DNA of 32,000 bases from Candidatus Peribacter riflensis (GTDB lineage Bacteria > Patescibacteriota > Gracilibacteria > Peribacterales > Peribacteraceae), in contig CP013062.1 in the NCBI GenBank assembly GCA_001430755.1, forward strand, positions 120,001 through 152,000. The letters run 5' to 3'. Position 1 is the stretch's first letter. Each line of letters begins with the position of its first letter. The translations under genes were made by a program, and so were the position numbers. The notes beneath the pieces were generated by a model. That model was not told the DNA's origin. It ran no database searches and saw only the letters and a list, made by a program, of their open reading frames with translations. Of this stretch, positions 8,547 through 22,347 are shown piece after piece.

Positions 8547-9710
8547 ATGCCTGACGAACATCCACATACACCAGAGATTCCCGGGTCTACGCTCCCTGAA
8601 GCCGGACAGGATCAACAGATCGCACAGAAGCGTGCGGATACGCAGGTCTCTTCACGCATGACCACGTTCGCGCAGCAACCCGACGAAAGCGCCGAGAAGC
8701 TGCAGGAACGCTTCATCAGTGAAGTGTTGGTTCCGGCTATCGAGTGGGCGATCCTGCCGGATGCACGCGATCTCGTGGCAGATATCACTGCGCAACTCGA
8801 ACAGGGGCTTCCTGATTCTTCGCGGGCGAACGACTGGGGCACGCGGGCCTCGGCCATTGTCGAGCGCATGAGCCGCCTCTTGATGCAGATGGAGCAGGTT
8901 GCGAGCAGGCACCTGGGTCCTGTGGGTGCTTTTGCCATGGGGGAGATCGCGCACCACTGCCCCAAATTCATGCATATGTTGATCGCACCGACCTGCCGGG
9001 AACTGGCGCTTGCATTGGAGCGCGGAGACACCGAAGCTGCCGAAAACTGCCGTCGGATCATCCTGCAGGAAATCGGCGGGACCGGAGTGCATGCTGCAGA
9101 GCAACGGCTCCAGTTTCTTCTCGAAAAATACTTCATAACCAAACTGGCCTTCGCCAACCGCTTTCAGAAAGCGAAGAAGGGGATCAGCGCCTCCGGAAAT
9201 TTCAGTCGCATCATGGCACAATCGGAGCGCCGGATGGGGGAAATTCTGCACAATGTACTGAGACTGGAGCACCATTCCTACGAAGTGGAATTCGTCACAA
9301 ATATTCCTGAAGAGCAGCAGGAACAGGATCTGATTCCCCGGGCAGGACTCATCGGAGAAGTGCTTGCAGAATTGATGCTGAACGCGTTTAAAGTGATGGA
9401 GCAGACAAAGAAGGGATCCAAACTCATCGTCACGATCAACCTACGAAAAGACGGCAGTATGCTGCTCAAGGTGCATGATGATGGGCCGGGAATCGGCAAT
9501 CGCGATCCCGAAGAGCTCTTTAGAGCGGGCGAAACGACAACGCAGCGTTTCGGGGGGACGGGGATGGGGCTCACGTATCTGCGCCAGAACATTCAGGAGC
9601 ACTTTCAGGGATTTCTCACTGCGCAGAAGAATACCAGTGAACCGGGGATGACTGTTTCATGTATCCTGCCGCCGGCGGAGGGATGGCCGCAGCAGGAGGG
9701 CGATGAGTGA
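8547..9710 (+). CDS. Soluble GHKL/HATPase_c-domain protein (atypical histidine-kinase-like ATPase with no TM segment and no canonical H-box)
   Basis: 387 aa. The C-terminal ATPase motifs are N-box LAELMLNAFKV, G1 VHDDGPGIG and G2 FGGTGMGLTYLRQNI. The N-terminal ~270 aa are helical. I could not find an H-E-x-x-T/R-P-type phosphoacceptor box. The nearest candidate, GEILHNVLRLEHH, is weak. Confidence 0.75.
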   Translation: MPDEHPHTPEIPGSTLPEAGQDQQIAQKRADTQVSSRMTTFAQQPDESAEKLQERFISEVLVPAIEWAILPDARDLVADITAQLEQGLPDSSRANDWGTRASAIVERMSRLLMQMEQVASRHLGPVGAFAMGEIAHHCPKFMHMLIAPTCRELALALERGDTEAAENCRRIILQEIGGTGVHAAEQRLQFLLEKYFITKLAFANRFQKAKKGISASGNFSRIMAQSERRMGEILHNVLRLEHHSYEVEFVTNIPEEQQEQDLIPRAGLIGEVLAELMLNAFKVMEQTKKGSKLIVTINLRKDGSMLLKVHDDGPGIGNRDPEELFRAGETTTQRFGGTGMGLTYLRQNIQEHFQGFLTAQKNTSEPGMTVSCILPPAEGWPQQEGDE

Positions 9711-9717
9711 GGGCACA

Positions 9718-10725
9718 TCACGTCCCGAAGTACTTCTGAAACTTCTCTGCTTTCAGCAGCTTGGCCCCCAGCGTGAGCATCTGAGTCTGAAGGCGCGGGT
9801 GGGCCCGCAGGCGCTTGAGCATGCCCTCGCGGCGCTGCTTTAAGGCGAGCATGCGCTCCAGTTCCGGCATGGGATATGCGGGATCTAAAATGCGCTTCGC
9901 CACCTCCTGCCCCGATGCGAGCGCGAAGGCGATACCCTCGCCGGTGAAGGCCTCGGTGAGTCCCGCGGCATCCCCTGCGAGAAAGACGTTGCCGAATAGA
10001 GCGCCCTTGTACAGCACGCCGAGGGGTGCGCCCCGTACGGCTTCGGGATCGAACGGGAACCCCTCATCCGCCATGAATTCTTTGAATGCCTCGATGACCT
10101 TCTCGTACGGAATTTCGTCCGGATCGTAGTACGCGCCCACGTTGGTGATGCCCTCCCGCTTCGGAAAAGCCCACATGTACCCGGTCGCAATGCGTGCGGG
10201 ATCAAAGAACCACAGCACCCGTTCTGTCTTCACCGGCACGTCGATGGCGAAGCCAAGCGTGATTTTGCGCGGCAACTTCAAAAAGCGGCGCACCATGGAG
10301 TCGGCTCCGTCCGCGCCCACGAGGGAGGTGAAACCGAAAGTTCCCTGCGTCGTCACGACGCTGTCTTTCTGTATTTCGGTGACTTTCGTATCGGTGAGCA
10401 CGGTGATGTTCGCAGTGCCAGAGATCTCCTTCAGAAGAAACTGACCCAGGTCCAAGCGGGTGATGGAGCGAAGCCCGTGCTTCAGGTGGATCACGGTGTC
10501 GTGCCCGCCCACGCGGATGGTGTGTGTCGGCGCGGGGTGCGAAAGGGATTCTGGTATCCCAAAGCCTTCATCCTGGTGCGTGAGGCCCCCGCCGCAGGTT
10601 TTGGGCCCGATCACCTTTTTCCGGTCCACAATCAGCACGGATTTGTTTGATCCTTTCAGCGTCCGCGCGCACTGCAGCCCCGCGGGTCCTGCACCGACGA
10701 TGATGACGTCGAAGCGAGTTTCCAT
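9718..10725 (-). CDS. Geranylgeranyl reductase family FAD-dependent oxidoreductase
   Basis: From ORF 9718..10875. METRFDVIIVGAGPAGLQCARTLKG...VLIVDRKKVIGPKTCGGGLT contains the GxGxxG dinucleotide fold plus the xKxCGGG motif typical of geranylgeranyl/digeranylgeranylglycerophospholipid reductases. The distal FLAGDAAG motif is also present. Start set at ATG 10725; the upstream extension is low complexity. Confidence 0.82.
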   Translation of the reverse strand: METRFDVIIVGAGPAGLQCARTLKGSNKSVLIVDRKKVIGPKTCGGGLTHQDEGFGIPESLSHPAPTHTIRVGGHDTVIHLKHGLRSITRLDLGQFLLKEISGTANITVLTDTKVTEIQKDSVVTTQGTFGFTSLVGADGADSMVRRFLKLPRKITLGFAIDVPVKTERVLWFFDPARIATGYMWAFPKREGITNVGAYYDPDEIPYEKVIEAFKEFMADEGFPFDPEAVRGAPLGVLYKGALFGNVFLAGDAAGLTEAFTGEGIAFALASGQEVAKRILDPAYPMPELERMLALKQRREGMLKRLRAHPRLQTQMLTLGAKLLKAEKFQKYFGT

Positions 10726-10892
10726 CTGTTGGGCACTGGTATACCACAAATGGAGTGAGGGAGAGTGGTGGACCAAGTGCGGAAATATTGGAACCGCTTG
10801 GAGGAGCTGATTTATGTGTGGCATGGGCAATGGATGACCAGTGCGGCAACGTGAATTCGAGATTACATGTATCATGGGACAAAGTTTTTCTC

Positions 10893-12254
10893 ATGACAGC
10901 CACCCCTCTCGATTATTTCATCGAAGCGACGACGGGCTTGTGTCCGCAGTGTATGAAGTCAGTGCCTGCAAAACTTCTGCGCAAACAAAACTCAGTCTAT
11001 TTGGAGAAATACTGCCCAACGCATGGTCCCCAAACGGAGCTTTTTGAGGAAGATGCAGACTACTTCATCAGACGAAGAGACTTCGACAAACCCGGGACCG
11101 ATTGCAGGAGGCAGACAGAAACCAAGAAAGGCTGCCCTTTTGATTGCGGTCTCTGCCCTCAGCACGCCCAGCACACCTGCATCGGACTCATCGAAGTGAC
11201 GAATGCCTGTAACCTTGGTTGTCCCATGTGCTACGCGGCATCGGGGAGTGGTGAGTTTCTTCCACTCGAAGTCATCGAAAAAATGATGGATACCTACATT
11301 CAGTCCGAGCTCGAGCCGCCTGAAATCCTCCAGATCAGCGGCGGCGAACCGACGCTCCACCCGAATATTCTTGAAATTATCACACTGGGAAAGCGCAAGG
11401 GTTTCAAGTATGTCATGCTTAATACGAATGGACTACGCTTGGCGAACGACGAAGCATTTGTCCGGAAGCTCGCGGAGTTCAAAGGGGGATTTGAAGTCTA
11501 CCTGCAGTTCGATGGGTTGAACCCCGCAGCACTTCTTTTGCTGCGCGGGAAAGATGTAAGTTCCATCAAGAGAAAAGCAATTGAACATCTTGAGCGCCAC
11601 CGTGTGCCAACGACGCTCGTTGCGACGATTGTGCAGGGAGTGAACGACGGCGACATCGGAGCGATCGTAAAATTCGGGCTCGATACCCCGGGCATCCGTG
11701 GTGTGAATTTCCAGCCCATGGCGTTCTTCGGCAGAATTCCTGAGGGCATGAGCACGAAGGGCCGTATAACATTGACCGGCATTATTCGGTGCATTGAGGA
11801 GCAAACGGACGGCTTGCTCTCCCGAAATGATTTTGTGCCTCTGCCCTGCGATGTTGACCGCGTTTCACTCACGTATCTGCACAAAGACAAGAAGGGAAAA
11901 TGGATTCCGCTGCCACGTGAAATTGATCTGAAGCAGTTCGTTCCGGCAATCAAGAATACCTTCGCTTTTTCCCTTGATGATGCAATCGATATGAAAGCGG
12001 CACAGGGGTGTGATTGCTTCAGGGGACCGTTCAAGCTTATCGATCTCCTTGCCGATGCAGCCCTGCTGCGCTCCTTGCACAAGCGTGCGCAATACCTCAA
12101 TGAAAACCTGTTCCGTATTAGCATTACGTCGTTTGTGGATCCCTACAATTTTGATCTGCGCTCCATGCAGAAGGAATGTGTGCATATCATTACGCCCGAT
12201 GGACGGAAAATACCCTTCTCCGCGTACAATATGATTCATCGAAAAACCGAATGA
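10893..12254 (+). CDS. Radical SAM enzyme with an N-terminal rubredoxin/zinc-ribbon-like CxxC...CxxH and an extra CX3CX2C cluster; architecture resembles the archaeal tetraether lipid synthase (Tes/GDGT-MAS) family
   Basis: From ORF 10755..12254, start set at ATG 10893 (MTATPLDYFIE). Motifs in order: CPQCMKSVPAKLL...YCPTHG, then GCPFDCGLCPQHAQHTC, then the radical SAM motif VTNACNLGCPMCYA, then ISGGEPTLHP, YLQFDG, VATIVQGVNDGDIGAIVKF and GVNFQPMAFFGR. The order and wording match my memory of the MJ0619-type family. The radical SAM call is firm. The Tes assignment is an inference. Confidence 0.8.
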   Translation: MTATPLDYFIEATTGLCPQCMKSVPAKLLRKQNSVYLEKYCPTHGPQTELFEEDADYFIRRRDFDKPGTDCRRQTETKKGCPFDCGLCPQHAQHTCIGLIEVTNACNLGCPMCYAASGSGEFLPLEVIEKMMDTYIQSELEPPEILQISGGEPTLHPNILEIITLGKRKGFKYVMLNTNGLRLANDEAFVRKLAEFKGGFEVYLQFDGLNPAALLLLRGKDVSSIKRKAIEHLERHRVPTTLVATIVQGVNDGDIGAIVKFGLDTPGIRGVNFQPMAFFGRIPEGMSTKGRITLTGIIRCIEEQTDGLLSRNDFVPLPCDVDRVSLTYLHKDKKGKWIPLPREIDLKQFVPAIKNTFAFSLDDAIDMKAAQGCDCFRGPFKLIDLLADAALLRSLHKRAQYLNENLFRISITSFVDPYNFDLRSMQKECVHIITPDGRKIPFSAYNMIHRKTE

Positions 12255-12886
12255 CGCAGATGGCACTCCTCCGTCGGCTCGCCGCTACCCCCCTCGGAAT
12301 TTTTGACATCGTCATGACAACGATTGTTCTTCTCTGTGTCGTCGCCATCTTCGTGGCAGTTATTTTGAACTTTGCAGGATCCAATACTCAGCATGTACGA
12401 AAAGAGCGGCGGAGTATTGTGGAAACCGGAACAATGACGGCATTCTTCCTTGTCTACTATCTCTGTGCGAGATTCCAGGTCGGCGCCCTCCCACCGCCAC
12501 CTGTTGCACTTCATATTTCCATTGCTTGTCTCTCTCTCGTCGTCATTGTCGGCGGGACACTCGTGAATATTTGGGGAAGGGTGGCACTGGGGCACAATTG
12601 GGCAAATCAGATCAAAATGTACGAGAATCAGACATTCATTCACTCGGGACCATACTCATTTGTCCGGCATCCACTCTACGCATCGCTCGTTTGGATGTTT
12701 TTTGCGGGGAGCTTTCTTTACTTCAACTGGCTTCTTTTCCTACTCACGGTCGTTATCTTCCTTCCTTTCATGACATGGCGCGCACGGCAAGAGGAAATGC
12801 TGCTTGAGGAGCAATTCCCTGGGTACTCTAAATACCGGAAGATCACTGGCATGTTTTTTCCCAAACTCTTACGCTTTCACCTATGA
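12251..12886 (+). CDS. ICMT/PEMT-family integral membrane methyltransferase (isoprenylcysteine carboxyl / phospholipid methyltransferase-like)
   Basis: The start ATG at 12251 overlaps the radical SAM stop (ATGA). Polytopic membrane protein. The C-terminal signature is HSGPYSFVRHPLYASLVWMFFAGSFLY...RARQEEMLLEEQFPGYSKYRK (RHPxY...EE..L...FG..Y..Y). Confidence 0.82.
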   Translation: MTQMALLRRLAATPLGIFDIVMTTIVLLCVVAIFVAVILNFAGSNTQHVRKERRSIVETGTMTAFFLVYYLCARFQVGALPPPPVALHISIACLSLVVIVGGTLVNIWGRVALGHNWANQIKMYENQTFIHSGPYSFVRHPLYASLVWMFFAGSFLYFNWLLFLLTVVIFLPFMTWRARQEEMLLEEQFPGYSKYRKITGMFFPKLLRFHL

Positions 12887-13347
12887 AGACGCATCATCCT
12901 GTCTCTGTCCAGCGTGCAGCTTTTCTCTTCTGTCGTGTGAGTATTACGGTGATTCTCTGGGCTGCTTTTTTCCTGCATTCCATTGTCGTACTGTGGCTGG
13001 CATTCATTCTCTTGGGGCTTTCGGCCGTTCTTGGGGTGGATCGCGCGCCGATGATCGTTCTCTATACGCAGACGGTTGGGCGCTTTCTGCCTTCGTTCAC
13101 CGAGACTCTGGATCGCTCTGCCATGCGTTTTGCACACACGCTGGGTACGTTGTGGAGCGGGGCCTGCCTCTTTTGTTTGTACGTATTTCCACTCTCTCCG
13201 ATCGGCTGGCGTCTGCTTCTCCTTCTTTCAATTATGAAGACGATCTCAGCCTCCGGCTACTGTCCGGCTTCCAAGCTCTATACATGCGCGACGGGAGGCT
13301 GTTGTCCGCTCTCGCGACGTCTTTTCGGAGAGCAACATCATGACTGA
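12883..13347 (+). CDS. Small 4-TM membrane protein, DUF4395-like (tentative)
   Basis: 154 aa. The ATG at 12883 overlaps the previous stop (ATGA). It has four hydrophobic segments and a Cys-rich C-terminal tail, SASGYCPASKLYTCATGGCCP, reminiscent of DUF4395. The family assignment comes from memory only. Confidence 0.55.
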   Translation: MKTHHPVSVQRAAFLFCRVSITVILWAAFFLHSIVVLWLAFILLGLSAVLGVDRAPMIVLYTQTVGRFLPSFTETLDRSAMRFAHTLGTLWSGACLFCLYVFPLSPIGWRLLLLLSIMKTISASGYCPASKLYTCATGGCCPLSRRLFGEQHHD

Positions 13348-14122
13348 TTTTCTTCCTTCGGCGTCATCCTCTTCTTCTTGGGGCATCCGCCCTGTCTTGT
13401 TTTTTGTTGGGGCATTGCCGGTGGAGTCCTATCCCTTTTTCATGTTGCTCGCACTCGCGGTAGGCATACTCGTTTTTCTCTATTACCTGAAGAAGCTGAA
13501 AAAACAACATAGCCATTCCCTCTCCATTCTCGTTGCTGCTTTGGTGGGGGGAGTGCTCGGCGCGAAAATCCCGATCTGGCTCACTCAATATCCACATATT
13601 GCGGAAGGAGGATGGAACATTGATACCATTCTCTCAGGACGAACCATTGTGGGGGGCTTGATTGGCGGCACGATTGCGGTGCAGCTCATCAAACGGAAAT
13701 TACATATCCAACAACGCATTGGTAATGCCATTGCCCCTGCGCTCGCTGCCGGTATTGCGGTGGGGAGGTGGGGGTGTTTTCTCCGTGGTTGCTGCTTCGG
13801 AATGCCAACGAATTTACCGTGGGGCGTTGATTTCGGCGATGGTGTTTTCCGGCATCCGACACAACTCTACGAGTCACTCTTCGGAGTTATTGCATTTCTC
13901 ATGCTGGCGCTTCTCCTGAAAAAGAAACAGCCGGACGGATCGCTCTTTGCCGGGTTCATGATCGCGTACTTTCTCTTTCGCTTCTTCCTCGAATTCATCC
14001 GCGTCGAGCCGCGCGTTCTCTTTGGGCTCACCGGGTACCAGTATGCCGCGATGGTGGTGCTGGTATACTATGCAGTAAGGCTCTTCCATTCCCCATATAT
14101 GTATGGACACATCGCAGGGTAA
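13340..14122 (+). CDS. lgt: Prolipoprotein diacylglyceryl transferase (Lgt) family protein with a divergent Cys-substituted signature motif
   Basis: 260 aa, overlapping the previous gene by 8 nt. Lgt landmarks present: GRTIVGGLIGGTIAV (HGGLIGG region), GRWGCFLRGCCFGMPTNLPWGVDF (compare GRLGNFINGELWG...PW) and RHPTQLYESLFG (RHPSQLYE). In a hand alignment the conserved Asn and Glu of the GNFINGE motif are replaced by Cys. Confidence 0.78.
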   Translation: MTDFLPSASSSSSWGIRPVLFFVGALPVESYPFFMLLALAVGILVFLYYLKKLKKQHSHSLSILVAALVGGVLGAKIPIWLTQYPHIAEGGWNIDTILSGRTIVGGLIGGTIAVQLIKRKLHIQQRIGNAIAPALAAGIAVGRWGCFLRGCCFGMPTNLPWGVDFGDGVFRHPTQLYESLFGVIAFLMLALLLKKKQPDGSLFAGFMIAYFLFRFFLEFIRVEPRVLFGLTGYQYAAMVVLVYYAVRLFHSPYMYGHIAG

Positions 14123-14609
14123 AAGGGACTTTTACAGCGATACCGGCAAATCGAGCGCCTCCTTCCTTCTGGGGATTGCCCTGATGGTATTCCTTTCGCT
14201 CGGAGGTCTCCTGTTGGTTACCAGCACGAACAGTATGCCGGCAGTTCTGGCCCTCGTGGCGACGACCTGTGTTCTCATCGCATATCTGCATTACCAATTC
14301 GGCCGCAAGGGAGGGGATGGTGTCATTCGCATGGTCTTTGATTTCATTCTTGGGGTACTGTTGACCGTTATCGGAGGGATGGGCGTCAACTTCTTCATCG
14401 GTCTTTTTGCCATTTCTGTCGGCAATGCATTCGGAGGCCAAATTGCAGGCATCATCATCGGGATCGGCTGTGCCGTGGGGCTTCTGTATCTCTGTGTTCG
14501 TTTATTCTTGAGGAGAGGGAGGAAATATATTGCTTTTGGAATGCTTGGGAGCGCTATTATCCCACTCTTCATCTTTGGGGCTTGTTTGTATTCATTGAAC
14601 GGGCTCTGA
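14103..14609 (+). CDS. Hypothetical polytopic membrane protein (Gly-rich TM helices)
   Basis: 168 aa, overlapping lgt by 20 nt, and the last gene of the operon. It has 5-6 hydrophobic segments (LLGIALMVFLSLGGLLLV, AVLALVATTCVLIAYL, FILGVLLTVIGGMGVNFFIGLFAISVG...). Confidence 0.6.
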   Translation: MDTSQGKRDFYSDTGKSSASFLLGIALMVFLSLGGLLLVTSTNSMPAVLALVATTCVLIAYLHYQFGRKGGDGVIRMVFDFILGVLLTVIGGMGVNFFIGLFAISVGNAFGGQIAGIIIGIGCAVGLLYLCVRLFLRRGRKYIAFGMLGSAIIPLFIFGACLYSLNGL

Positions 14610-14653: not shown

Positions 14654-14797
14654 GTGGTGGAGATGCCCCTCCTTCGTTCGCCTCCGCCCTCGGCTCTGGC
14701 GAACTACGGCGGGCAGGCGGGAGGCCCAACATCTTGCAACAGCATATTCGCCAAAACGCACACGAGGTGCGTTTGCCGAATATGTGGTGGAGATGCC
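14654..14797. repeat. 14-nt perfect direct repeat GTGGTGGAGATGCC (14654-14667 and 14784-14797); the second copy is the 3' end of ssrA
   Basis: Read directly. On the minus strand both copies read GGCATCTCCACCAC, which is the acceptor 3' strand plus CCA of the tmRNA. Each copy is followed by a small hairpin. Confidence 0.75.
14754..14774 (-). terminator. Hairpin AAACGCAC-ctcgt-GTGCGTTT followed by T, 10 nt past the ssrA 3' end
   Basis: An 8-bp stem read on the minus strand (14774..14754). The stem runs into TTTTGG. This is a plausible weak intrinsic terminator for ssrA. Confidence 0.4.
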
Positions 14798-15187
14798 GGG
14801 AATCGAACCCGGGTCCAACGTGTAGTGCAGCTGCTTGTACTGTCGTGCTCCTCTCGTACTCACACCCCTAAGAGAGAAGCAGAGAAAGGGTGTGAGGGAT
14901 GATGCCTGATTGACCACAGGGCCGCGACATCAGACGGCTCTGCTGCCTCGCTGATTACGCCTCATCCCTGTAGCGAGAATCGAGGGTGAGACGTGTCCGC
15001 GTAGAGCGGACTTAGGCAGCCAGTGCGAATGCGGGCGCAAACGTGAAGTTCGCGAACGCCTTCTTAAAGACCGCCGGTACATCTGCAGTGGCAGATATTG
15101 TTTGCAACAGTGGGTGCGGGAACCGTTGCCCTCCCGAACAGAAGCGAAACTTCACCAGTATCACGCTGTCGAAACCAAATCATCCCC
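14785..15187 (-). ncRNA. ssrA: tmRNA (SsrA), about 403 nt
   Basis: The minus-strand 5' end, GGGGATGATTTGGTTTCGACAGCG, parallels E. coli GGGGCUGAUUCUGGAUUCGACGGG. The 3' end, GGACCCGGGTTCGATTCCCGGCATCTCCACCA, parallels GGACGCGGGUUCAACUCCCGCCAGCUCCACCA. The acceptor strands GGGGATG/CATCTCC pair with a G3:U wobble (alanine identity). An internal frame, GCG TTC GCG AAC TTC ACG TTT GCG CCC GCA TTC GCA CTG GCT GCC TAA (15059..15012), encodes AFANFTFAPAFALAA-stop with a canonical ...ALAA tag end. The exact resume codon is uncertain. The ORF-track entries at 14617-14917 are therefore non-coding. Confidence 0.92.
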
Positions 15188-15332: not shown

Positions 15333-15956
15333 TCACTCTCGTGCCTTCGCCATCGCACGCACCGCCCACAGCATCGTCGAGAGTTCCCCGCGGGTGATGG
15401 GTCCATCCAGGTCGGCATCCGCCGAGAGCGCGCCGCCAGCAATGAGGGCATCCACGTAATGATCGGACCAGAATTCCTTTGGATCCGTGGTGTCTGTAGC
15501 CAAGTGGAAGGCCTTGGCCAGCGCTTTGGCCGCTTGGGCACGTGTCACGAGGGCGTTCGGGCGGAAGGTGCCGTCCGTCAAGCCGCGCATGACTCCCGCG
15601 CGCATGGCCGTGCAGAGGTCGATGCCGTACGAGGCATCTTTCTCCACATCACGTGCCAACAGAGAGTAATCGGATTCCGAAAGCTTGGGGAAACACCGTT
15701 CCGTGGGCCTGAAGAGCCGGCGCACGATCGCAGCCACGAAGGTGGAGCGCCTGATCGTCGCATCAGAATCCCATGTGTAGGCAACGGACCCCACGGCGGG
15801 CAGGGGAGGAGGCAGGGGCAGGAGAACCGGCTCCTCCATCATGATGATGGCGGGAGCTTTGGGCGGCAGCATCACGTCTTCGGGAAAGTACGCAGACGCC
15901 AGCTGCGGCAGGAGCAGGGAACAGGTGAGCAGAGCGGAGATGGAGCGTGTACGCAT
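15333..15956 (-). CDS. SLH (S-layer homology) domain envelope protein with signal peptide
   Basis: From ORF 15333..16022, start set at ATG 15956 (MRTRSISALLTCSLLLPQLASA, a signal peptide). SLH-type repeats are present: GVMRGLTDGTFRPNALVTRAQAAKALAKAF and HYVDALIAGGAL...GPITRGELSTMLWAV. Confidence 0.8.
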   Translation of the reverse strand: MRTRSISALLTCSLLLPQLASAYFPEDVMLPPKAPAIIMMEEPVLLPLPPPLPAVGSVAYTWDSDATIRRSTFVAAIVRRLFRPTERCFPKLSESDYSLLARDVEKDASYGIDLCTAMRAGVMRGLTDGTFRPNALVTRAQAAKALAKAFHLATDTTDPKEFWSDHYVDALIAGGALSADADLDGPITRGELSTMLWAVRAMAKARE

Positions 15957-16031
15957 GGAGATAAGGGGAAAAGGGGACGATTGTGAACCTCCCTTGTCTT
16001 CGGTGCAATTGCCTTTGAACACTCGAGGTGC

Positions 16032-17186
16032 TCAGTCCTCGCTCACCTTCAGCTTGGCCAGCATCCGCATGAATGCCGTTTCAGGATTATGGAGCGTACT
16101 GCCGCAGTGTAACGAGAAGCGCTGGAAGTGGCGGGGTGTGAGAATGAGGGCATTGCGTGTCGTACAGGCCATCTGTTCCTCAAAGAGAATGGTGCGGGTA
16201 CGCCCCACTGTCTGATCGGAGAGAATGTAGACATTGCTGGCTTCTTCCAGCTCGGCGATTGCATCGCGTGCATGAAGGCGGTCGAAGGCCGTGAGCGAGA
16301 AATCCGTCTCGACGCAGGCATTCCAGCCCCAGCACTCGCGCTGCGGGCCGATGTACAGTTTCCAGAGCGACGGCAGTTGCGGCTGTGTTTCTCTGTCAAA
16401 CACGCTGCGGCTGAGCAGACGGGGCTTGGGCCACACGTTGGGGTAGGAGAGCGAGAAGCCCAGGTCCGGCTGCTCCTCCGTTTTCCAGGTGACGGGATTC
16501 GACACTTCCACCTCATCGAGTGAGATACGCTGAACGGGAGGGAGCTCTGAAGGAAGCTTCAAGAGACGTGCGAGCATCTCGGCCACCTCTCCGCGCGTGA
16601 GGATGTGGGCGTGATCCTGTACCGAGGGCGGAATTGCCTCCGCCATGTCCATGTAGTGGAGGTAGGGCTTGTACCACTCCTTCCCCAGCAGATCCAGGTC
16701 GGGAATTTTGACGGGGGCGAGCCTGAAGGCGATCGACAGGATTTTCGCCCCTTCATCGAGAGAGATGGACCGGTCCGGACGGAAGCTGCCGTCTCCGTAG
16801 CCCGAGATGAAACCGTACGACCACGCCACGCACACCACCGGCGCAAACCATGCATCCGGCGGCACATCCGAGAATTGCATGCCCAGGCCGTACTTCTCGA
16901 GCGAGGAGGCGTCGCTCAGGCAGCCCTCGATGAGGGTCTGCGGTGCGAGGGCACTGATGATCATCTTCGTGAATTCCGCGCGGGTCACCGATGATTCCGG
17001 CCAGAAGACGCGGCGTTCCCCGGGCACGATGAACCCCTGTATGATCTCGCGCTGACGCAGGAGATCGATGGATTCGGCATACGGGTGCGTGTCGGGCACG
17101 TCCGCAAAGAACATCGCCCCCGCGATGGATGGAGTGAATCCGAGGACAACGAGTGCGAGCGGGACGATCCGGCGGAGAGGATGCAT
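16032..17186 (-). CDS. SLH-domain envelope protein with signal peptide and a C-terminal domain of unknown function
   Basis: From ORF 16032..17729. The start is set at ATG 17186 (MHPLRRIVPLALVVLGFTPSIAGA), 7 nt downstream of an extended -10, TGgTACAAT. Three SLH-like repeats are present: FADVPDTHPYAESIDLLRQREIIQGF, FSDVPPDAWFAPVVCVAWSYGFISGYGDGSFRPDRSISLDEGAKIL and WYKPYLHYMDMAEAI...ILTRGEVAEMLARLL. The upstream Arg/His-rich 180 codons are rejected because they overlap the DUF360 gene. Confidence 0.8.
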   Translation of the reverse strand: MHPLRRIVPLALVVLGFTPSIAGAMFFADVPDTHPYAESIDLLRQREIIQGFIVPGERRVFWPESSVTRAEFTKMIISALAPQTLIEGCLSDASSLEKYGLGMQFSDVPPDAWFAPVVCVAWSYGFISGYGDGSFRPDRSISLDEGAKILSIAFRLAPVKIPDLDLLGKEWYKPYLHYMDMAEAIPPSVQDHAHILTRGEVAEMLARLLKLPSELPPVQRISLDEVEVSNPVTWKTEEQPDLGFSLSYPNVWPKPRLLSRSVFDRETQPQLPSLWKLYIGPQRECWGWNACVETDFSLTAFDRLHARDAIAELEEASNVYILSDQTVGRTRTILFEEQMACTTRNALILTPRHFQRFSLHCGSTLHNPETAFMRMLAKLKVSED

Positions 17187-17193
17187 GGAGGGC

Positions 17194-17202
17194 ATTGTAC
17201 CA
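17194..17202 (-). promoter_or_regulatory. Extended -10 promoter candidate TGgTACAAT, 7 nt upstream of ATG 17186 (leaderless layout)
   Basis: The minus strand reads gaaTGgTACAATgccctccATGcatcct. Confidence 0.45.
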
Positions 17203-17255
17203 TTCGACACGGAGTCCATCGACCATCTACGCTGGGGGCACTTTTCCCCTCCACT

Positions 17256-17450
17256 ATGGATCAGCCAGAACTTCAGAAGCGCGTCGAGGCCTTTCTCAAA
17301 GATCTCGGGATCCCGAGCTTCATCGTCTTCGGATTCCAGAAGAGTGAAAAAGAGTTCGGCTTCATCTGGTCCCACCACCAGGCTCCGTCGAATGTGGTCA
17401 TCAAAGGGCTCTCCTGGGCGCTGCATGATTTCGTGCAGAAGAAGCTCTGA
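17256..17450 (+). CDS. Hypothetical small protein (64 aa)
   Basis: Internal ATG of ORF 17085..17450: MDQPELQKRVEAFLKDLGIPSFIVFGFQKSEKEFGFIWSHHQAPSNVVIKGLSWALHDFVQKKL. The composition is natural-looking. It fits exactly between the divergent SLH gene start and the convergent DUF360 stop, and is preceded by a pyrimidine-rich leader. The competing antisense frame has no credible start. Confidence 0.4.
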   Translation: MDQPELQKRVEAFLKDLGIPSFIVFGFQKSEKEFGFIWSHHQAPSNVVIKGLSWALHDFVQKKL

Positions 17451-17452
17451 AT

Positions 17453-17845
17453 TCACTTCAGGATTTCTTTCATCACCCAGTTCGCGAACCCGATGACTGC
17501 GGCGACCACGATCCAGCCCCACACGCCGCCGAAAATCTCCAGCCCCACGATGGCGGGGTCCATCCTGAGCACGAGCAGGTGCACCAGCCACACGAAGACG
17601 CCGTTCGAAATGATCACGGCGAGAATGGTGGCGAAGAGCCGCAGAGGCATCGTGATGATGGCGAGGATCGGGCGCACGAGGATATTGAGCAGTGTCAGGA
17701 GCGCACCCACGATGATGATGGCGCGCCAACCGCCGGTGAGCTCGAAGTACTGACTGAGGTACGTCGCCATTCCCCAGACGAGGGCGATATTCAAAATCGC
17801 CTTCATCGTAATCTTGAGCGGCAATGAACCCGAAGAGTCGGCCAT
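17453..17845 (-). CDS. DUF360 / phage-holin-family 4-TM membrane protein (YvlD-like)
   Basis: 130 aa with four TM helices. The sequence style, ...LLTLLNILVRPILAIITMPLRLFATILAVIISNGVFVWLVHLL...GGVWGWIVVAAVIGFANW, matches that family. The ATG at 17845 lies 10 nt after the ileS stop, so it is probably co-transcribed. ATG 17806 is an alternative start. Confidence 0.72.
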   Translation of the reverse strand: MADSSGSLPLKITMKAILNIALVWGMATYLSQYFELTGGWRAIIIVGALLTLLNILVRPILAIITMPLRLFATILAVIISNGVFVWLVHLLVLRMDPAIVGLEIFGGVWGWIVVAAVIGFANWVMKEILK

Positions 17846-17855
17846 GGCGGGCAGT

Positions 17856-20800
17856 CTACCTCTTCTGCAGCCTCACCGTCACGTCGGTTCCGTCGATGGT
17901 GACGGACTGGGCCTCGCCGTCATTCTGCTCCCAGAGGGCATTCGTTTCCTGGGCAATGGCGGCCCCGTGCTCCTTCTGCACGTCCGCCAGGCCATCCATG
18001 CTGAGTGCGATGCGATCGGTGAAGTGCAGCCCCGCCTCCTTGCGGAGCTTCTGCACCGCGCGGATCACGTCGCGGGCCAGCCCTTCGCGCTTGAGCTCTT
18101 CCGTGATGGCGGTCTCCATGCAGACGACGATGCCCTGATCGACCGCAGCATCCTGCCCCTCCTTTCCGCGGTAGACGATCGCCACTTCATCCGGCGCCAG
18201 CACTTCGTCGAGGATCAGCACAGAGCCATCCTCCTTCACGGTGAATGCGCCGCTCTTGCCGGCGCGAATGATCTCCTGCACGCGGGCGCCCAGACGTGGG
18301 CCCACTTTGCGCGCGTCCACCTGTGCGATGCGGCAGGCGAGCGTGCCCGGATCATCGGTGAATTCCAGATCTTTCACATTGAGTTCGTTCTTGAGCAGAT
18401 CGCGGTCTTCTTCGGTGAGCCTGAGAGCGGCAAGCGAGGGGGGGAGGGCAACCGTTGCGCGCGCGAGCGGCTGGCGCACTTTGATCTTCTTGCCGGAGCG
18501 GATGGCGTGTCCGAGCGAAACGATGTGGCGCATCAGGCGGTTGCGTTTCAGGAGTTCCCATTCCTCGGCGGTGAGGGCGCGCGGCTCGGGCCAATCGCTC
18601 AGGTGGATCGAGGTGTGAGCCTCCGGTACCAGGTTTAAGTAGATGGCCTCCGTGAGGAAAGGACAGAACGGAGCGAGTGTCTGGCACAGGGTCAGGAGCG
18701 CATCGTAGAGCGTACCCAGCGCGGCTGCCTGCTCCGCGTCATGTTCACTCAGCTCTGCAGACGGGCTCGTATCTTCCTCATCGGCTGCCCCCTTGCCGGC
18801 GAAGATCCTGCGCGACAGGCGCACGTACCAGTTGGTCAGGGCATCGATGGTTTCGTGGATTTCGGCACACGCCGCAGAGAGGTCATAGCCGTCGAGTTGC
18901 TTGGTCATGCGATTCACCAGGTCCTGCACCTCGGCGCGCAGGTACCGGTCGAGCGGATGGCCGGAGTGTCCGCGCGATCCTGTGGGCTCGAACCCGGCGG
19001 CATTCGCGTAGGTCACGAAGAAACTGTAGACATTCCAGAGGGGGAGCAGCACGGAGCGCACCGTCTCCTCCACCAGTTTCTCAGAGAAGCGCAGATCCTC
19101 GCCGCGCACGGCGGGCGAGCTCATGAATGTGAAGCGCACGGCATCCGCGCCGTGACGATTGACGACCTCGGTCGGTTCCGGGTAGTTCTTGAGCCGCTTG
19201 CTCATCTTCTTGCCGTCCTCCGCCAGCACGATGCCGTTGACGATGCAGTTGAAGAACGCCGGTTTCTTGAAGAGCGCGGAAGAGAGAATCATGAGCGTGT
19301 AGAACCATCCGCGTGTCTGGTCGATGCCCTCGGCGATGAAGTCCGCCGGAAAGCCCGGCGGGGATTTTTTGCCCTTGCCGGCCTGTGCGAAGTCGAACGG
19401 GAAGTGCGATTGTGCGTAGGGCATCGAGCCGCTCTCGAACCAGCAGTCGAGCACCTCGGGGATGCGGTGCATGAGAGCGGGGAGGGCGAGGTCGGTCGTC
19501 TCTGCATTCTTCGGATCGATGACGGCCGCTTCTGCGAAGGAAAGATTGTCCACGATCGCCTGCAGGCCCCTGAGCGGACCCGAATGACAGGCGACGAGCA
19601 CGCGCTTGCCGGGGAATTCCGCGCGGATCTTCTCCAGCACGGTTTCGAGCCGCTGCAGGAATGCCTGCAGGCTTTCCCCACCGGGGGGCGTGCCCGGGTG
19701 GAGAGCGGGGCTTGCCGTGATGCTGCGGGGGAGCAGCGTGATGAAGTCCTTCACGGGCTTTCCCGTCCAGTCTCCCGTATCGCGTTCGCGCAATTCTTTC
19801 CACCGGGCTGTGTGCGGCACCTTGAGTTCTGCGGAGAGAATTTCCGCAGTCTCCACGGCGCGCTTGAGATCCGATGAGATGATCACGTCGAACTTCCGCT
19901 TCTTTAATTTCTTCGCGAGTGCATGCACCTGTTCGCGTCCCGTCTCGTTGAGGAGGGTATCGATGTTGCCGCCGTTCACCAGATCCTGTTTGTTGTAATC
20001 CGTCTGCCCGTGGCGGACGACGGTGAGAAGCGTGTCGGTTTTCTTGGAACCCGCATTCCACGTGATCTCGTCCACGATGTGCTTGTGCAGGTCCAGCTCC
20101 TTTCCCGCCTCGTGATCCCAGTAGAACGTGTAGGGAGTGGCGAAGAAGGGGTAGGGCTGGTGGCTCAGCTTCACGGGATCTTCGTTGCTGAAGAAGTGGC
20201 GGATATTCTGGATGGGGTCGGCATGCGTGACGAGGACGATATGGCCGCCGCGGTGGAGCGGCAGAACATCCTCCATGAACGCACGCATGCGCTGTGCAAC
20301 ATCGCTCCATTTCTCCATGCCCGGAAAGTGATAGATGCTCTCGGGCGTTGCCGTCGAAAGCTTGTGGGCGCGCCGCGCCTTCACGAAGGTCAGGTCCGAG
20401 AAGTCGACGGTTTTTCCCTCGTAGTCCCCGAAGCACACCTCGCACAGGCGCGGATCCACGATCACGGGAGCCCCCGTCTTCTTGGCGATTGCCTCGGCAG
20501 TCTGCCGCGTGCGGGCGAGCGGGGAGCAGTAGATCGCAGTGACTTCTGCGGTGTTCAGGTAGTCGGCTGCCTTGCGTGCCTGCTCTTTTCCTTTGGCCGT
20601 CAGGTTCGTTCCGGGCTCCTTGCCCTGATAGACAGGGACCAGATTGCCTTCGCTCTCGCCGTGGCGCAGCGCCGTGACTTTGGTGAAGCGCAATTTCTTC
20701 TGCGCCGTGAGCTCCTCTCTGCTGGCGATCACGGTCATGTCCTTCGTCTCCGGGCAGCGCCAGATCGGCAAAGGCGTGCCCCAGTAGCGGTTGCGACTGA

Positions 20801-22265
20801 TCGCCCAGTCTCGTGCCCCTTCCAGCCACTTGCCGAACCGTCCGTCGCGGATGTGCGCGGGCACCCACTCCGTTTCCGCATTCGCGGCGAGTACGTCTTC
20901 TTTGATCTTCTCCACCGAAACGAACCATGAGCTCGTAGCGTAGTTCAGGAGAGGGGAGTCGCAGCGCCAGCAGTGCGGGTAGCTGTGCGTGTAGGGTTTT
21001 GCGTCGAAGAGCTTGCCGTGTTCCTTGAGCCACTTGGTCACCAGACGGTCGGTCTTGCCCGGATCGGCGATGGGCTTCACTTCCATGCCCGCAAAGTCCG
21101 TCACCTCCGAAACGAATTTCCCTTCCATGTTCACGTGCTGCAGCACGGGGAGCTTCTCCTTCTTTCCCAGGTTGTAGTCGTCCTCACCGAACCCCGGCGC
21201 AATGTGCACGATACCGGTGCCCTCGTCCGCAGTCACAAAGTCCGCCCCCACGATCCGGTAGGCGTTCGCATATTCTTTCTGGTTCTGGAAGTAGGGGAAG
21301 AGCGGAATGTACCGCTTGCCCAGAAGGGTTTTGATTGAAATATCTTCGACGCTTTCCGGATTTTCTTCAATCTCCTCACCTTCCCTTTTCGCTTTTGCAT
21401 ACAACAGAGGATGCAGCAAATTCTTCGGATCCTTTCTCTGATCAAATATTTTTTTGGCGAGAATATAGCGTTCACAACCATACTGGTATTTCACATATTT
21501 TATGTGAGGATCCACGGCGAGGAGCAAATTCCCCGGCAGTGTCCACGGGGTCGTGGTCCATGCGAGGATGAACGTGCCCGGCTCGTCGGCGAGTTCGAAC
21601 TTCACCGTCACGGACGTATCTGTGATGTCTTTGTAGCCCTGTGTCACCTCGAAGTTCGAGAGTGGTGTGACGCACCGTGGACAGATATGCATGGGCTTGT
21701 GGCCTTCATAGATCAAATCCTTCTTCGCCAGCTCGCTGAACACCCACCAGATCGATTCCATGTACTCCGGATCCATGGTGCGGTAATCCCAGTCCATGTC
21801 CACCCAGCGTCCCATGCGCTCCACCACCGTCCTCCATTCCTTGGCATAGCGCTGCACTGCCGTGCGGCAGAGCCCGTTGAACGCTGCGATTCCCATCTCT
21901 TCGATCTCCTTATGGGACTTGATGCCCTTCTCCTGTTCGATGATGTTCTCGACGGGGAGCCCGTGACAGTCCCAGCCGAAGCGCCGTTCCACATACTTGC
22001 CGCGCATCGTCTGGTAGCGTGGGATCACATCCTTGATCGTTCCCGCCAGCAGGTGGCCGTAGTGGGGGAGCCCCGTGGCGAACGGGGGTCCGTCGTAGAA
22101 ACTGTAGGTCTCCTGTTTCTGGCCCATCGGTCCATCCAGCAGGTCACCCGTGCCGGTGGAGCGTTGTTTGAGGCTGCGCTTGAAGGTGTCTTCCTCTTTC
22201 CAGTAGCGGAGGATGCCTTCCTCAAGGGCCGGCAGGGATTGTTTCGGATCAACGGGATCGAACAT
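17856..22265 (-). CDS. ileS: Isoleucyl-tRNA synthetase (type 2 / eukaryote-like) with two inserted histidine-phosphatase (PGM-type) domains
   Basis: From ORF 17856..22304. Start set at ATG 22265 (MFDPVDPKQSLPALEEGILRYWKEEDTF), 7 nt downstream of a TACACT hexamer. IleRS motifs present: PPFATGLPHYGH (HIGH), CP1 editing TTPWTLPGNL, WAISRNRYWGTPLPIW, EVLDCWFESGSMPYAQ, GIDQTRGWFYTL and KMSKR (KMSKS). About 420 extra residues between PLPIW and EVLDCWFESG carry two RHG...SPL/DLxR...E...H phosphatase signatures (see findings). Confidence 0.95.
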   Translation of the reverse strand: MFDPVDPKQSLPALEEGILRYWKEEDTFKRSLKQRSTGTGDLLDGPMGQKQETYSFYDGPPFATGLPHYGHLLAGTIKDVIPRYQTMRGKYVERRFGWDCHGLPVENIIEQEKGIKSHKEIEEMGIAAFNGLCRTAVQRYAKEWRTVVERMGRWVDMDWDYRTMDPEYMESIWWVFSELAKKDLIYEGHKPMHICPRCVTPLSNFEVTQGYKDITDTSVTVKFELADEPGTFILAWTTTPWTLPGNLLLAVDPHIKYVKYQYGCERYILAKKIFDQRKDPKNLLHPLLYAKAKREGEEIEENPESVEDISIKTLLGKRYIPLFPYFQNQKEYANAYRIVGADFVTADEGTGIVHIAPGFGEDDYNLGKKEKLPVLQHVNMEGKFVSEVTDFAGMEVKPIADPGKTDRLVTKWLKEHGKLFDAKPYTHSYPHCWRCDSPLLNYATSSWFVSVEKIKEDVLAANAETEWVPAHIRDGRFGKWLEGARDWAISRNRYWGTPLPIWRCPETKDMTVIASREELTAQKKLRFTKVTALRHGESEGNLVPVYQGKEPGTNLTAKGKEQARKAADYLNTAEVTAIYCSPLARTRQTAEAIAKKTGAPVIVDPRLCEVCFGDYEGKTVDFSDLTFVKARRAHKLSTATPESIYHFPGMEKWSDVAQRMRAFMEDVLPLHRGGHIVLVTHADPIQNIRHFFSNEDPVKLSHQPYPFFATPYTFYWDHEAGKELDLHKHIVDEITWNAGSKKTDTLLTVVRHGQTDYNKQDLVNGGNIDTLLNETGREQVHALAKKLKKRKFDVIISSDLKRAVETAEILSAELKVPHTARWKELRERDTGDWTGKPVKDFITLLPRSITASPALHPGTPPGGESLQAFLQRLETVLEKIRAEFPGKRVLVACHSGPLRGLQAIVDNLSFAEAAVIDPKNAETTDLALPALMHRIPEVLDCWFESGSMPYAQSHFPFDFAQAGKGKKSPPGFPADFIAEGIDQTRGWFYTLMILSSALFKKPAFFNCIVNGIVLAEDGKKMSKRLKNYPEPTEVVNRHGADAVRFTFMSSPAVRGEDLRFSEKLVEETVRSVLLPLWNVYSFFVTYANAAGFEPTGSRGHSGHPLDRYLRAEVQDLVNRMTKQLDGYDLSAACAEIHETIDALTNWYVRLSRRIFAGKGAADEEDTSPSAELSEHDAEQAAALGTLYDALLTLCQTLAPFCPFLTEAIYLNLVPEAHTSIHLSDWPEPRALTAEEWELLKRNRLMRHIVSLGHAIRSGKKIKVRQPLARATVALPPSLAALRLTEEDRDLLKNELNVKDLEFTDDPGTLACRIAQVDARKVGPRLGARVQEIIRAGKSGAFTVKEDGSVLILDEVLAPDEVAIVYRGKEGQDAAVDQGIVVCMETAITEELKREGLARDVIRAVQKLRKEAGLHFTDRIALSMDGLADVQKEHGAAIAQETNALWEQNDGEAQSVTIDGTDVTVRLQKR

Positions 22266-22272
22266 CACTGGC

Positions 22273-22278
22273 AGTGTA
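22273..22278 (-). promoter_or_regulatory. TACACT -10-like hexamer 7 nt upstream of the ileS ATG 22265
   Basis: The minus strand reads ctttgcTGTACACTgccagtgATGttc. There is no Shine-Dalgarno sequence and no room for a T-box leader. Confidence 0.35.
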
Positions 22279-22347
22279 CAGCAAAGGGTGTGGGGTGGCG
22301 TCATCCTGCACGCGCAGAATCGATGTCAAATATTGGTGTGAAAGTTT

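Follow-up and report, generated by a model that had tools for sequence, protein, structure and literature searches.

We analyzed a 32,000-nucleotide stretch of the genome of Candidatus Peribacter riflensis, a groundwater bacterium of the Candidate Phyla Radiation (CPR), and refer to that whole stretch as the window. The locus of interest, at positions 9718 to 14609, contains five plus-strand genes that we call the cassette. These encode a Tes-fold radical SAM protein (rSAM; 10893 to 12254, 453 amino acids [aa]), an ICMT/PEMT-type integral-membrane methyltransferase (12251 to 12886, 211 aa), a DUF4395 membrane protein (12883 to 13347, 154 aa), a divergent Lgt-family transferase (the Lgt-like protein; 13340 to 14122, 260 aa), and a small polytopic membrane protein (14103 to 14609, 168 aa). 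A gene for a geranylgeranyl-reductase (GGR)-family flavoprotein lies next to them on the minus strand (9718 to 10725, 335 aa). Comparison with other genomes showed that the conserved core of the system is formed by the Lgt-family transferase, the Tes-fold rSAM, and the small protein with its single invariant cysteine.

The cassette genes are chained by overlaps. An ATGA is common to the rSAM stop and the methyltransferase start (12251 to 12254), another is common to the methyltransferase and DUF4395 genes (12883 to 12886), and overlaps of 8 nucleotides (nt; 13340 to 13347) and 20 nt (14103 to 14122) join the DUF4395 gene to the Lgt-like gene and the Lgt-like gene to the small-protein gene, respectively. 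The start of the flavoprotein gene and the rSAM ATG at 10893 diverge from a 167-nt spacer (10726 to 10892, assigned to neither strand) that presumably holds the promoter region of the cassette. A first-pass annotation made from the sequence alone had given these coordinates, overlaps, and spacing, all of which were verified; the motifs it quoted, including the rSAM cysteine sites and the altered Lgt signature, were all found, and its family calls were matched by Pfam and NCBIfam, with the flavoprotein assigned to GG-red-SF (TIGR02032) below the cutoff. A scan of the locus found no sigma-70-like promoter, and terminator-like hairpins occurred at chance level only, both results being uninformative for a CPR genome.

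The deposited gene models start elsewhere for two of the proteins, giving an rSAM of 474 aa (P0001) and an Lgt-like protein of 226 aa (P0121), the latter without the conserved N terminus WGIRPVLF; family alignments favor the 453- and 260-aa starts used here. In base composition, the five cassette genes (GC content, 0.50 to 0.54; GC content at third codon positions [GC3], 0.56 to 0.60) fall below both the reductase gene (0.61 and 0.77, respectively) and the flanks (GC content of ~0.57 to 0.64), which hints that the cassette was acquired horizontally.

The Tes-fold radical SAM protein

The rSAM carries the Pfam domains Radical_SAM and Zn_ribbon_HMPTM. A phmmer search matched it to the tetraether lipid enzyme GDGT-MAS (Tes; MJ0619, PDB 7TOL) with an E value of 1e-87; the match consists of two pieces, which together cover the full length of the protein at ~33% identity. 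An AlphaFold model of the protein (predicted local distance difference test [pLDDT] score, 85.4; predicted template modeling [pTM] score, 0.89) recovers the four-domain Tes fold, including the C-terminal lipid-pocket domain. Foldseek aligned this model to 7TOL and 7TOM with TM scores of 0.84 to 0.85 over 485 columns, and the next hit scored below 0.4. Of the four metal sites of Tes, three have identical residues in the window protein. The sites present are a rubredoxin-like CX2CX20CX2H (C17/C20/C41/H44), an N-terminal auxiliary CX3CX2C with a histidine (C81/C85/C88/H91), and the radical SAM CX3CX2C (C106/C110/C113), each of them invariant in the family alignment.

The C-terminal part of the protein differs from that of Tes. 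Met439, the labile ligand of the C-terminal [4Fe-4S] cluster of Tes, and Tyr459 are completely conserved in 1000 archaeal homologues (PMC9433317), whereas the window rSAM aligns T412 and I432 to these positions and S443 to the cysteine of the Tes “PFC” motif. In place of these hallmarks the window protein has cysteines specific to its clade, C319, C373, and C375. Across that clade, C319 and C429 are invariant and are accompanied by two paired cysteines; the pair takes the form CxC at positions 373 and 375 in one type of locus (type A, described below) and “LLCC” about 10 residues later in the other (type B). These clade-specific cysteines could serve as ligands for a C-terminal cluster that is built differently. 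The loop that holds C373 and C375 is the sole internal low-confidence part of the AlphaFold model.

Against the Tes equivalog NF045702, the rSAM scored 331.7 bits (cutoff, 450), with residues 13 to 326 matching positions 2 to 318 of the 486 in the model; a true Tes representative (P0300) scored 480.6 bits and matched over its full length. The best curated model was that of TrsS (NF045646), which aligned with residues 12 to 450 of 453 at 369.9 bits (cutoff, 490). Eight other Lgt-linked rSAMs scored 308 to 381 bits against the TrsS model, compared with 545 and 595 bits for the true TrsS members P0273 and P0289. TrsS, a radical SAM (seleno)protein reportedly defined by Haft and Tolstoy in 2025, falls in the same length class as the window rSAM and aligns with it end to end, but TrsS keeps Met439 and the “PFC” cysteine and the window protein does not.

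We rejected Tes orthology on the basis of the score, the unmatched C-terminal third of the model, and the replacement of Met439 and Tyr459, and we rejected TrsS membership on the basis of the sub-cutoff score and the lack of a common genomic context. Since it fails both cutoffs, the rSAM is, as judged from these profile comparisons, a member of a third, unnamed, Lgt-linked clade of the Tes/TrsS/“HMPTM” family. The first-pass annotation had recognized a protein of the Tes/GDGT-MAS type; the full-length fold and the E value of 1e-87 bear this out, while orthology does not hold, and comparison of hidden Markov models leaves the protein as a relative of Tes and TrsS that lies below both curated cutoffs.

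Two further contrasts with characterized lipid enzymes deserve mention. The window clade is mostly bacterial, unlike Tes, and is paired with an Lgt-like protein and a small cysteine protein, a pairing for which Tes is not known. GDGT-MAS binds lipid tails and acts on their terminal carbons (PMC9433317). Mss, a bacterial radical SAM enzyme by which lipid tails are joined (Thermotoga and Thermoanaerobacter; PMC13159169, PMC13459092), is described in its source paper as only a remote relative of Tes, with no Lgt partner reported.

A more distant homologue was seen on a plasmid of Mycolicibacterium vanbaalenii (NZ_CP126902.1; L168). This 527-aa protein, the one mycobacterial plasmid homologue inspected, is 37% identical to the window rSAM, belongs to a different clade, and has no Lgt; its gene adjoins a methyltransferase-domain gene and is divergent from genes for CcdA and a protein disulfide oxidoreductase.

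Conservation of the cassette and its membrane partners

Gene neighborhoods were surveyed in one genome per GTDB species, which yielded 80 rSAM loci whose open reading frames (ORFs) were called and searched with the six window proteins. Contigs encoding close and distant rSAM relatives were also inspected, giving 87 other loci in all for the check on the reductase described below. The order rSAM, ICMT/PEMT, DUF4395, LGT, and small unannotated protein (100 to 120 aa), with tight spacing, was found in a Clostridia-like genome, in Chlorobaculum, in Falkowbacteria, in another member of the Patescibacteria, and in a relative from the Peribacteraceae. The last of these encodes an rSAM that is 79% identical to that of the window and has the full cassette, with different upstream neighbor genes and no reductase. 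The cassette also occurs in Elusimicrobia and Bacteroidales and in metagenome-assembled genomes (MAGs) of Woesearchaeota, Pacearchaeota, and Methanosarcinales. Recurrence of the same order and spacing in unrelated lineages places the arrangement beyond chance, and it upholds the first-pass proposal that the five plus-strand genes make up one functional unit.

A same-strand Lgt-like gene adjoins the rSAM gene in 69 of the 80 GTDB species loci. In 7 of the 11 loci without one, the contig ends on the side where the gene would be expected, and in an eighth (L024), the rSAM gene itself is only a fragment. Two main types of locus can be distinguished. In type A, the order is rSAM-ICMT-DUF4395-Lgt, the rSAMs are 48 to 59% identical to the window protein, and the hosts are of anaerobe type (Clostridia, Bacteroidales, Elusimicrobia, Holophaga, an Actinobacteria MAG, and the woesearchaeal, pacearchaeal, and methanosarcinal MAGs). 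In type B, the Lgt-like gene lies directly upstream of the rSAM gene, ICMT and DUF4395 genes are missing, and the rSAMs are 39 to 45% identical to that of the window. Type B hosts include Bacilli (Paenibacillus, Brevibacillus, Heyndrickxia, Fictibacillus, Aeribacillus, and Neobacillus), many Chitinophagaceae and Saprospiraceae, Planctomycetota, Gammaproteobacteria, and one MAG each of Halobacteriales and Thalassarchaeaceae. Pontiella has an intermediate architecture, rSAM-ICMT-Lgt.

Of the 69 loci with an Lgt-like gene, 18 also carry an ICMT-type gene, and clustering of the ORFs flanking type B loci yielded no further conserved neighbors, only sporadic genes for ABC ATPases and short-chain dehydrogenases/reductases (SDR). 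Because the Lgt-like and rSAM genes are common to both types and the accessories are confined to type A, the enzymatic core is the rSAM with the Lgt-like protein; ICMT and DUF4395 are dispensable in most lineages and are accessories of one branch. The two core partners also covary. An Lgt signature of the form “GC..GCC” goes with the rSAM “CxC” pair in type A, and “GC..GLDDH” together with Y26H goes with “LLCC” in type B. Type A is the richer of the two in conserved cysteines (GC..GCC in Lgt, CxC in rSAM, and CC in DUF4395), and the GCC of the Lgt-like signature is specific to this anaerobe-type cassette.

Gene fusions gave a second line of evidence for the partnership. When 1.84 billion cluster representatives were searched exhaustively with HMMER, 626 rSAM clusters came up at an E value of 1e-30 or better, among whose representatives were two independent Lgt-like::rSAM fusions (P0246, 733 aa; P0327, 671 aa), both with the Lgt-like part N-terminal and the rSAM part C-terminal. 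The P0246 cluster has three members on three different contigs, which rules out a single assembly error. Pailler et al., writing in J Bacteriol in 2012, are said to have found the C terminus of Lgt to be cytoplasmic, and together with the order of the fusions this would place the rSAM in the cytoplasm. As a control, we looked for Lgt-like, ICMT-like, and DUF4395 genes within 6 kb of 80 TrsS genes in loci from metagenomes and found none (0/80, against 69/80 Lgt-like-linked loci in the window clade), so that the Lgt linkage is specific to the rSAM clade of the window and is no artifact of the method. The locus is, in our reading, a self-contained, horizontally mobile membrane module.

The reductase does not share in this conservation. 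The flavoprotein is family-like yet sub-threshold (139.8 bits against TIGR02032, cutoff 158.8; 20.8 against Pfam GGR_cat, cutoff 27), and it matches 3OZ2 at an E value of 8e-11. No homologue of it lies within 6 to 8 kb of the rSAM gene in any of the 87 other loci, including the Peribacteraceae locus with the 79%-identical rSAM, and we rejected it as a member of the system. The reductase is a bystander whose adjacency is real in the window only. The first-pass annotation had counted it as part of the pathway and had suggested co-occurrence as a check; the rSAM, the Lgt-like protein, and, in one branch, ICMT do co-occur, and the reductase does not.

The Lgt-like protein matches Pfam LGT (PF01790; E value, 5.4e-40; residues 18 to 245) and has a seven-transmembrane body. 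It falls short of both curated models of the family, scoring 101.5 bits against TIGR00544 (cutoff, 118.9) and 128.2 bits against NF000778 (cutoff, 334). Its signature, encoded at 13763 to 13801 on the plus strand, reads GRWGCFLRGCCFG in place of the Escherichia coli GRLGNFINGELWG. The likeness to E. coli Lgt (5AZB, 5AZC) extends over the whole Pfam LGT domain, and the differences lie in particular substitutions, in a shortened head, and in the linkage to an rSAM. Aligned to 5AZB, the window protein keeps Y26, G142, R143, G145, G154, H196-P197, Y235, R239, and E243 and shows the changes H103V, N146C, N149R, and E151C, and the periplasmic head is reduced from 47 residues (E151 to P197) in E. coli to 23 (C151 to P173). 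This alignment verified the altered motif, with N146C and E151C, to which the first-pass annotation had drawn attention. In E. coli Lgt, R143, Y235, and R239 hold the diacylglyceryl moiety, and the head group of phosphatidylglycerol is bound by E151, which acts as a “substrate-selection filter” (PMC4728403).

That annotation had also suspected that the protein might not be a bona fide Lgt. Six residues are absolutely required in the E. coli enzyme (Y26, H103, R143, N146, G154, and R239; PMC13251419), and two of them are lost here; the curated cutoffs are missed as well. At least four copies of Lgt, their function unclear, are reported for the P. riflensis genome (PMC4736985), so that the cassette protein is a paralogue and not the sole Lgt. 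No second copy lies within the window. Natural N146C and E151C/D variants of Lgt exist, and a Leptospira variant complements in part (PMC13251419). The motif GRxGC, which embodies N146C, is found in 14 of 15 aligned cassette-linked Lgt-like proteins, the exception being the canonical GRLGN of Ktedonosporobacter. Among the published variants, Mycobacterium smegmatis MSMEG_5408 combines Y26H with N146C, the type B signature, and Leptospira Lgt pairs N146C with a nearby second cysteine, as the cassette proteins do (PMC13251419). These likenesses in the substitutions serve as a lead, and the source gives no genomic context for either protein.

The small membrane protein is hydrophobic and ranges from about 60 to 170 aa across loci, the window copy of 168 aa being long beside the ~60 to 120 aa of its counterparts. 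It matches no Pfam family, and all of its database relatives are annotated “hypothetical.” Its gene follows the Lgt gene in type A and the rSAM gene in type B. In an alignment of eight diverse type A examples, the only invariant residues besides the initiator methionine are G84, G159, and C161, the last encoded at 14583 to 14585 on the plus strand of the window. The architecture, by comparison, is constant: a Lys/Arg patch is followed by ~20 uncharged hydrophobic residues, a small residue with the cysteine, and a tail of 3 to 16 residues. In the window protein, RRGRK precedes a 19-residue hydrophobic helix, FGAC161, and a 7-residue tail (...LRRGRKYIAFGMLGSAIIPLFIFGAC-LYSLNGL). A lipoprotein signal peptide has this same succession of n-region, h-region, and lipobox, which is here moved to the C terminus. 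By the positive-inside rule, the cysteine would come to lie at the outer-leaflet interface, where the active site of Lgt lies.

A strict filter for this design (a positive patch, 12 to 26 hydrophobic residues, and [GAST]-C in an ORF within 700 nt downstream) was passed by an ORF in 53 of the 76 loci with downstream room, against 80 of 755 (11%) other small hydrophobic ORFs from the same loci. The cysteine lies 3 to 16 residues from the C terminus in 59 of 65 motif-bearing ORFs downstream of cassettes. Alpha- and gammaproteobacterial versions carry an N-terminal lipobox instead (LFSGGCS, LVSGGCS, or LLSGGCT; SGGC[ST]), followed by a second helix, and are thus the same design in permuted form. 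In several loci (L010, L016, L045, L053, L055, L061, L068, and L080), the small-protein gene stands in two tandem copies downstream of the cassette. In the cultured Chondrinema litorale, a type B carrier, RefSeq independently calls a 64-aa counterpart (...KKSKPKAAKVLFIIAGIYFVIGAGVCGSFF) on a plasmid (NZ_CP111057.1), where it comes after the genes for the Lgt-family protein and the rSAM (WP_284688998/997/996 for the three core genes). We suggest that this small protein with its lipobox-like cysteine is probably the key to the system; the first-pass annotation had overlooked that cysteine as well as the strict pairing of the rSAM and Lgt-like genes.

The accessory genes of type A belong to recognizable families. 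The methyltransferase passes the Pfam cutoffs for both ICMT (E value, 1.5e-12; 48.2 bits) and PEMT (E value, 7e-9; 36.4 bits) and scores 66 bits against the curated isoprenylcysteine methyltransferase model NF040696 (cutoff, 160). RHPLY and E181 are each kept in 23 of 25 cassette copies, and the Pfam match and the RHPLY...E motif together agree with the ICMT/PEMT-type assignment made at first pass. The DUF4395 protein (Pfam E value, 7e-11) has conserved cysteines at positions 17, 127, 135, 140, and 141 in 18 to 19 of 19 cassette copies; in the searchable literature, DUF4395 receives only passing mention in unrelated-looking studies.

The ICMT/CaaX processing system of eukaryotes and archaea offers a partial parallel. 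Its methyltransferase is of the same family, the RHPxY...E motif is kept in the cassette enzyme, and the cassette copy would act beside an enzyme that S-lipidates a cysteine near a C terminus. The CaaX cysteine, however, is followed by 3 residues and that of the small protein by 5 to 14. CaaX processing also uses an Rce1-type protease, whereas no conserved CaaX-type protease was found among the cassette loci, and the methyltransferase gene is missing from most (type B) loci. An Rce1-like (CPBP) gene follows the cassette only in one Patescibacteria locus (L087, 10600 to 11292) and was rejected as the partner of ICMT, as it is not found in any other locus.

A lipid-anchoring proposal and its alternatives

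We consider it very likely that the cassette is a dedicated lipid-directed module distinct from known families. We postulate that it carries out a private lipid attachment to the small protein followed by radical remodeling of the lipid. In this scheme, the last helix of the small protein would cross the membrane from inside to outside upon insertion, so that the cysteine would sit at the outer-leaflet interface like the lipobox cysteine of a prolipoprotein. The Lgt-like protein, in which R143, Y235, R239, and E243 are kept, the head-group filter is altered (E151C/N146C), and the head is a stub, would receive a membrane phospholipid and move its glyceryl-lipid to that cysteine to form a thioether; from the retained residues and the lipobox-like site we infer that diacylglyceryl is the group transferred. 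At the cytoplasmic face, beside the C terminus of the transferase or fused to it, the rSAM would direct a 5'-deoxyadenosyl radical at an unactivated carbon of the lipid tail, as Tes does, and the resulting C-C (or C-S) bond would cross-link or cyclize the anchor lipid. In type A, the product may be methylated at a carboxylate by the ICMT-like enzyme, and a redox or metal function may fall to the DUF4395 protein, which is rich in cysteines.

We put the probability of this mechanism as a whole at roughly 45%, slightly short of even. Its most specific form is a new bacterial and archaeal protein-lipidation pathway in which an Lgt-made thioether and an rSAM-made tail-to-tail C-C bond would yield a macrocyclic or membrane-spanning protein anchor; that form we regard as doubtful.

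Several findings weigh against the anchoring scheme. The C-terminal cluster region, which in Tes is the site of the lipid-sulfur intermediate, is remodeled in the rSAM, and its chemistry may therefore differ from C-C coupling. In the Lgt-like protein, four of the six required residues are kept (Y26, R143, G154, and R239), but H103 is replaced by Val and N146 by Cys, and with the loss of these two the protein might be inactive or might catalyze different chemistry. Three loci with adequate flanks (L067, L074, and L077) are without an Lgt-like gene, the strict motif filter failed in 23 of 76 loci, and the likeness of the small proteins across lineages consists of architecture and one cysteine only. 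Instead of a substrate, the small protein could be a subunit. The roles that we assign to the ICMT-like and DUF4395 proteins are guesses, and we count against the former the lack of a conserved protease that would expose a C-terminal lipidated cysteine.

If the small protein were only a subunit or anchor in the membrane, a phospholipid could be bound and handed to the rSAM by the Lgt-like protein, whether or not the latter is active as a transferase, and the product would be a modified free lipid. The Lgt-like::rSAM fusions fit such a handover, as do the unconserved H103 and N146, and the change in the E151C filter and the near absence of the head domain suggest altered substrate handling. Nevertheless, the invariant cysteine of the small protein falls exactly at the lipobox position, the proteobacterial small proteins have textbook lipoboxes, and the transfer residues R143, R239, and Y235 are kept, and we consider this arrangement unlikely. 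The first-pass annotation had proposed a pathway by which isoprenoid lipids are saturated, cross-linked, and methylated. In it the rSAM, as a bacterial Tes, would join the reductase, methyltransferase, and Lgt-like protein in making saturated, methylated, membrane-spanning lipids. That proposal draws on the full-length Tes fold and the strong match to GDGT-MAS, on the GGR-family gene next to the cassette, on the mevalonate pathway and missing fatty-acid synthesis of Peribacter (PMC4736985), and on the suggestion that bacterial Tes homologues make membrane-spanning lipids (PMC8941075). It seems to us distinctly unlikely. The rSAM is below the Tes cutoff, leaves the C-terminal third of the model unmatched, and has replaced Met439 and Tyr459; the GGR gene is missing from the 87 other loci; the methyltransferase and DUF4395 genes are mostly dispensable; and the cassette is common in bacteria with fatty-acid lipids (Clostridia, Bacilli, and Bacteroidota), a distribution that does not suit an isoprenoid pathway. 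It also leaves the Lgt-like partner and the cysteine-bearing small protein unexplained, and Tes homologues do not track the known bacterial producers of membrane-spanning lipids (PMC13159169).

The small protein might instead be the precursor of a lipopeptide, made in the manner of a peptide that is synthesized on the ribosome and modified after translation (RiPP): lipidated at the cysteine, it would be cleaved to release a lipidated peptide or lipid-capped fragment that the rSAM and the methyltransferase then tailor. The layout of a precursor next to tailoring enzymes, the tandem duplicates of the small gene in several loci, and the signal-peptide-like architecture right before the cysteine all fit this idea, and an ICMT-type enzyme needs a free carboxyl on a lipidated cysteine. 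We nonetheless hold it to be highly unlikely, as the cassette has no conserved protease or exporter, the tails past the cysteine are short, hydrophobic, and unconserved, and the fold of the rSAM is that of a lipid enzyme and not a SPASM or RiPP-recognition architecture. Barely credible is the view that a housekeeping lgt, an rSAM gene, and a methyltransferase gene merely happen to lie side by side. Public annotation does call the Lgt-like protein “prolipoprotein diacylglyceryl transferase,” and CPR genomes are compact and gene dense, but the order and spacing recur in at least a dozen phyla of both prokaryotic domains, with the core genes sometimes fused. The presence of at least four Lgt copies in the genome and the difference in GC3 between the cassette (0.56 to 0.60) and its neighbor (0.77) speak against it as well, and the neighborhood survey, with no such linkage in the TrsS sister-family control, already contradicts it.

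Wider significance and neighboring genes

No description of an Lgt-like protein combined with a Tes-like rSAM, or of DUF4395 combined with an rSAM, was found in the searchable literature, which agrees with the first-pass annotation, which did not recognize the gene context as a described system. Bacterial “Tes homologues” are discussed there only as candidate makers of branched tetraethers that do not track known producers (PMC13159169). What appears to be new here is the combination of genes; each part taken singly comes from a known family, and the chemistry is a prediction.

Bacterial Tes homologues serve as markers for the possible production of branched glycerol dialkyl glycerol tetraethers (brGDGTs) or membrane-spanning lipids, with BLAST thresholds of E <1e-50 and >20 to 30% identity (PMC8941075, PMC11868695). 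The window rSAM would pass these thresholds with its E value of 1e-87 and ~33% identity to GDGT-MAS. Since it would pass and yet belongs to a large Lgt-linked clade with another C-terminal region, these surveys may overcount lipid producers. If the anchoring scheme is true, many environmental “bacterial Tes homologues” would not be makers of free tetraethers. The cassette likewise gives a genomic context to the unexplained divergent Lgt proteins with N146C and E151C. Its occurrence in CPR and DPANN organisms, which are unable to make their own lipids, points to the remodeling of acquired lipids or to protein anchoring. Cultured carriers are available in Chondrinema litorale, Paenibacillus (for example P. 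glycanilyticus), Heyndrickxia, Niabella, and Ktedonosporobacter, although the Ktedonosporobacter locus has a canonical-type Lgt upstream and failed the small-protein filter.

LGT-family genes (PF01790) were also observed on archaeal contigs (L007, L009, L010, L015, L033, L072, and L085) assigned to Woesearchaeota, Pacearchaeota, Methanosarcinales, Halobacteriales, Thalassarchaeaceae, and Methanobacteriota, although Lgt has no known homologues in archaea according to a 2025 paper. One of these contigs (L010) carries pelota, an archaeal/eukaryotic gene, 1.7 kb away.

The genes that flank the locus in the window have features of their own. Upstream, a histidine-kinase-like ATPase protein (8547 to 9710, plus strand) has HATPase_c only, without a recognizable sensor or HisKA domain; its gene is convergent with the reductase gene and ends 8 nt before the reductase stop. 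On the other side, a transfer-messenger RNA (tmRNA) gene (14785 to 15187, minus strand) is convergent to the cassette, 175 nt past its last gene, and specifies the tag peptide ATADVPAVFKKAFANFTFAPAFALAA. Past the tmRNA gene, two big secreted-looking proteins are encoded on the minus strand (15333 to 17729), with the Pfam SLH domain only in the 229-aa one (15333 to 16022). They are followed by the gene for an isoleucyl-tRNA synthetase of 1482 aa (17856 to 22304, minus strand) with two histidine-phosphatase-like insertions (RHGESEGN and RHGQTDYN). A 1437-aa orthologue of this synthetase from the Peribacteraceae likewise shows Pfam His_Phos_1 within tRNA-synt_1.

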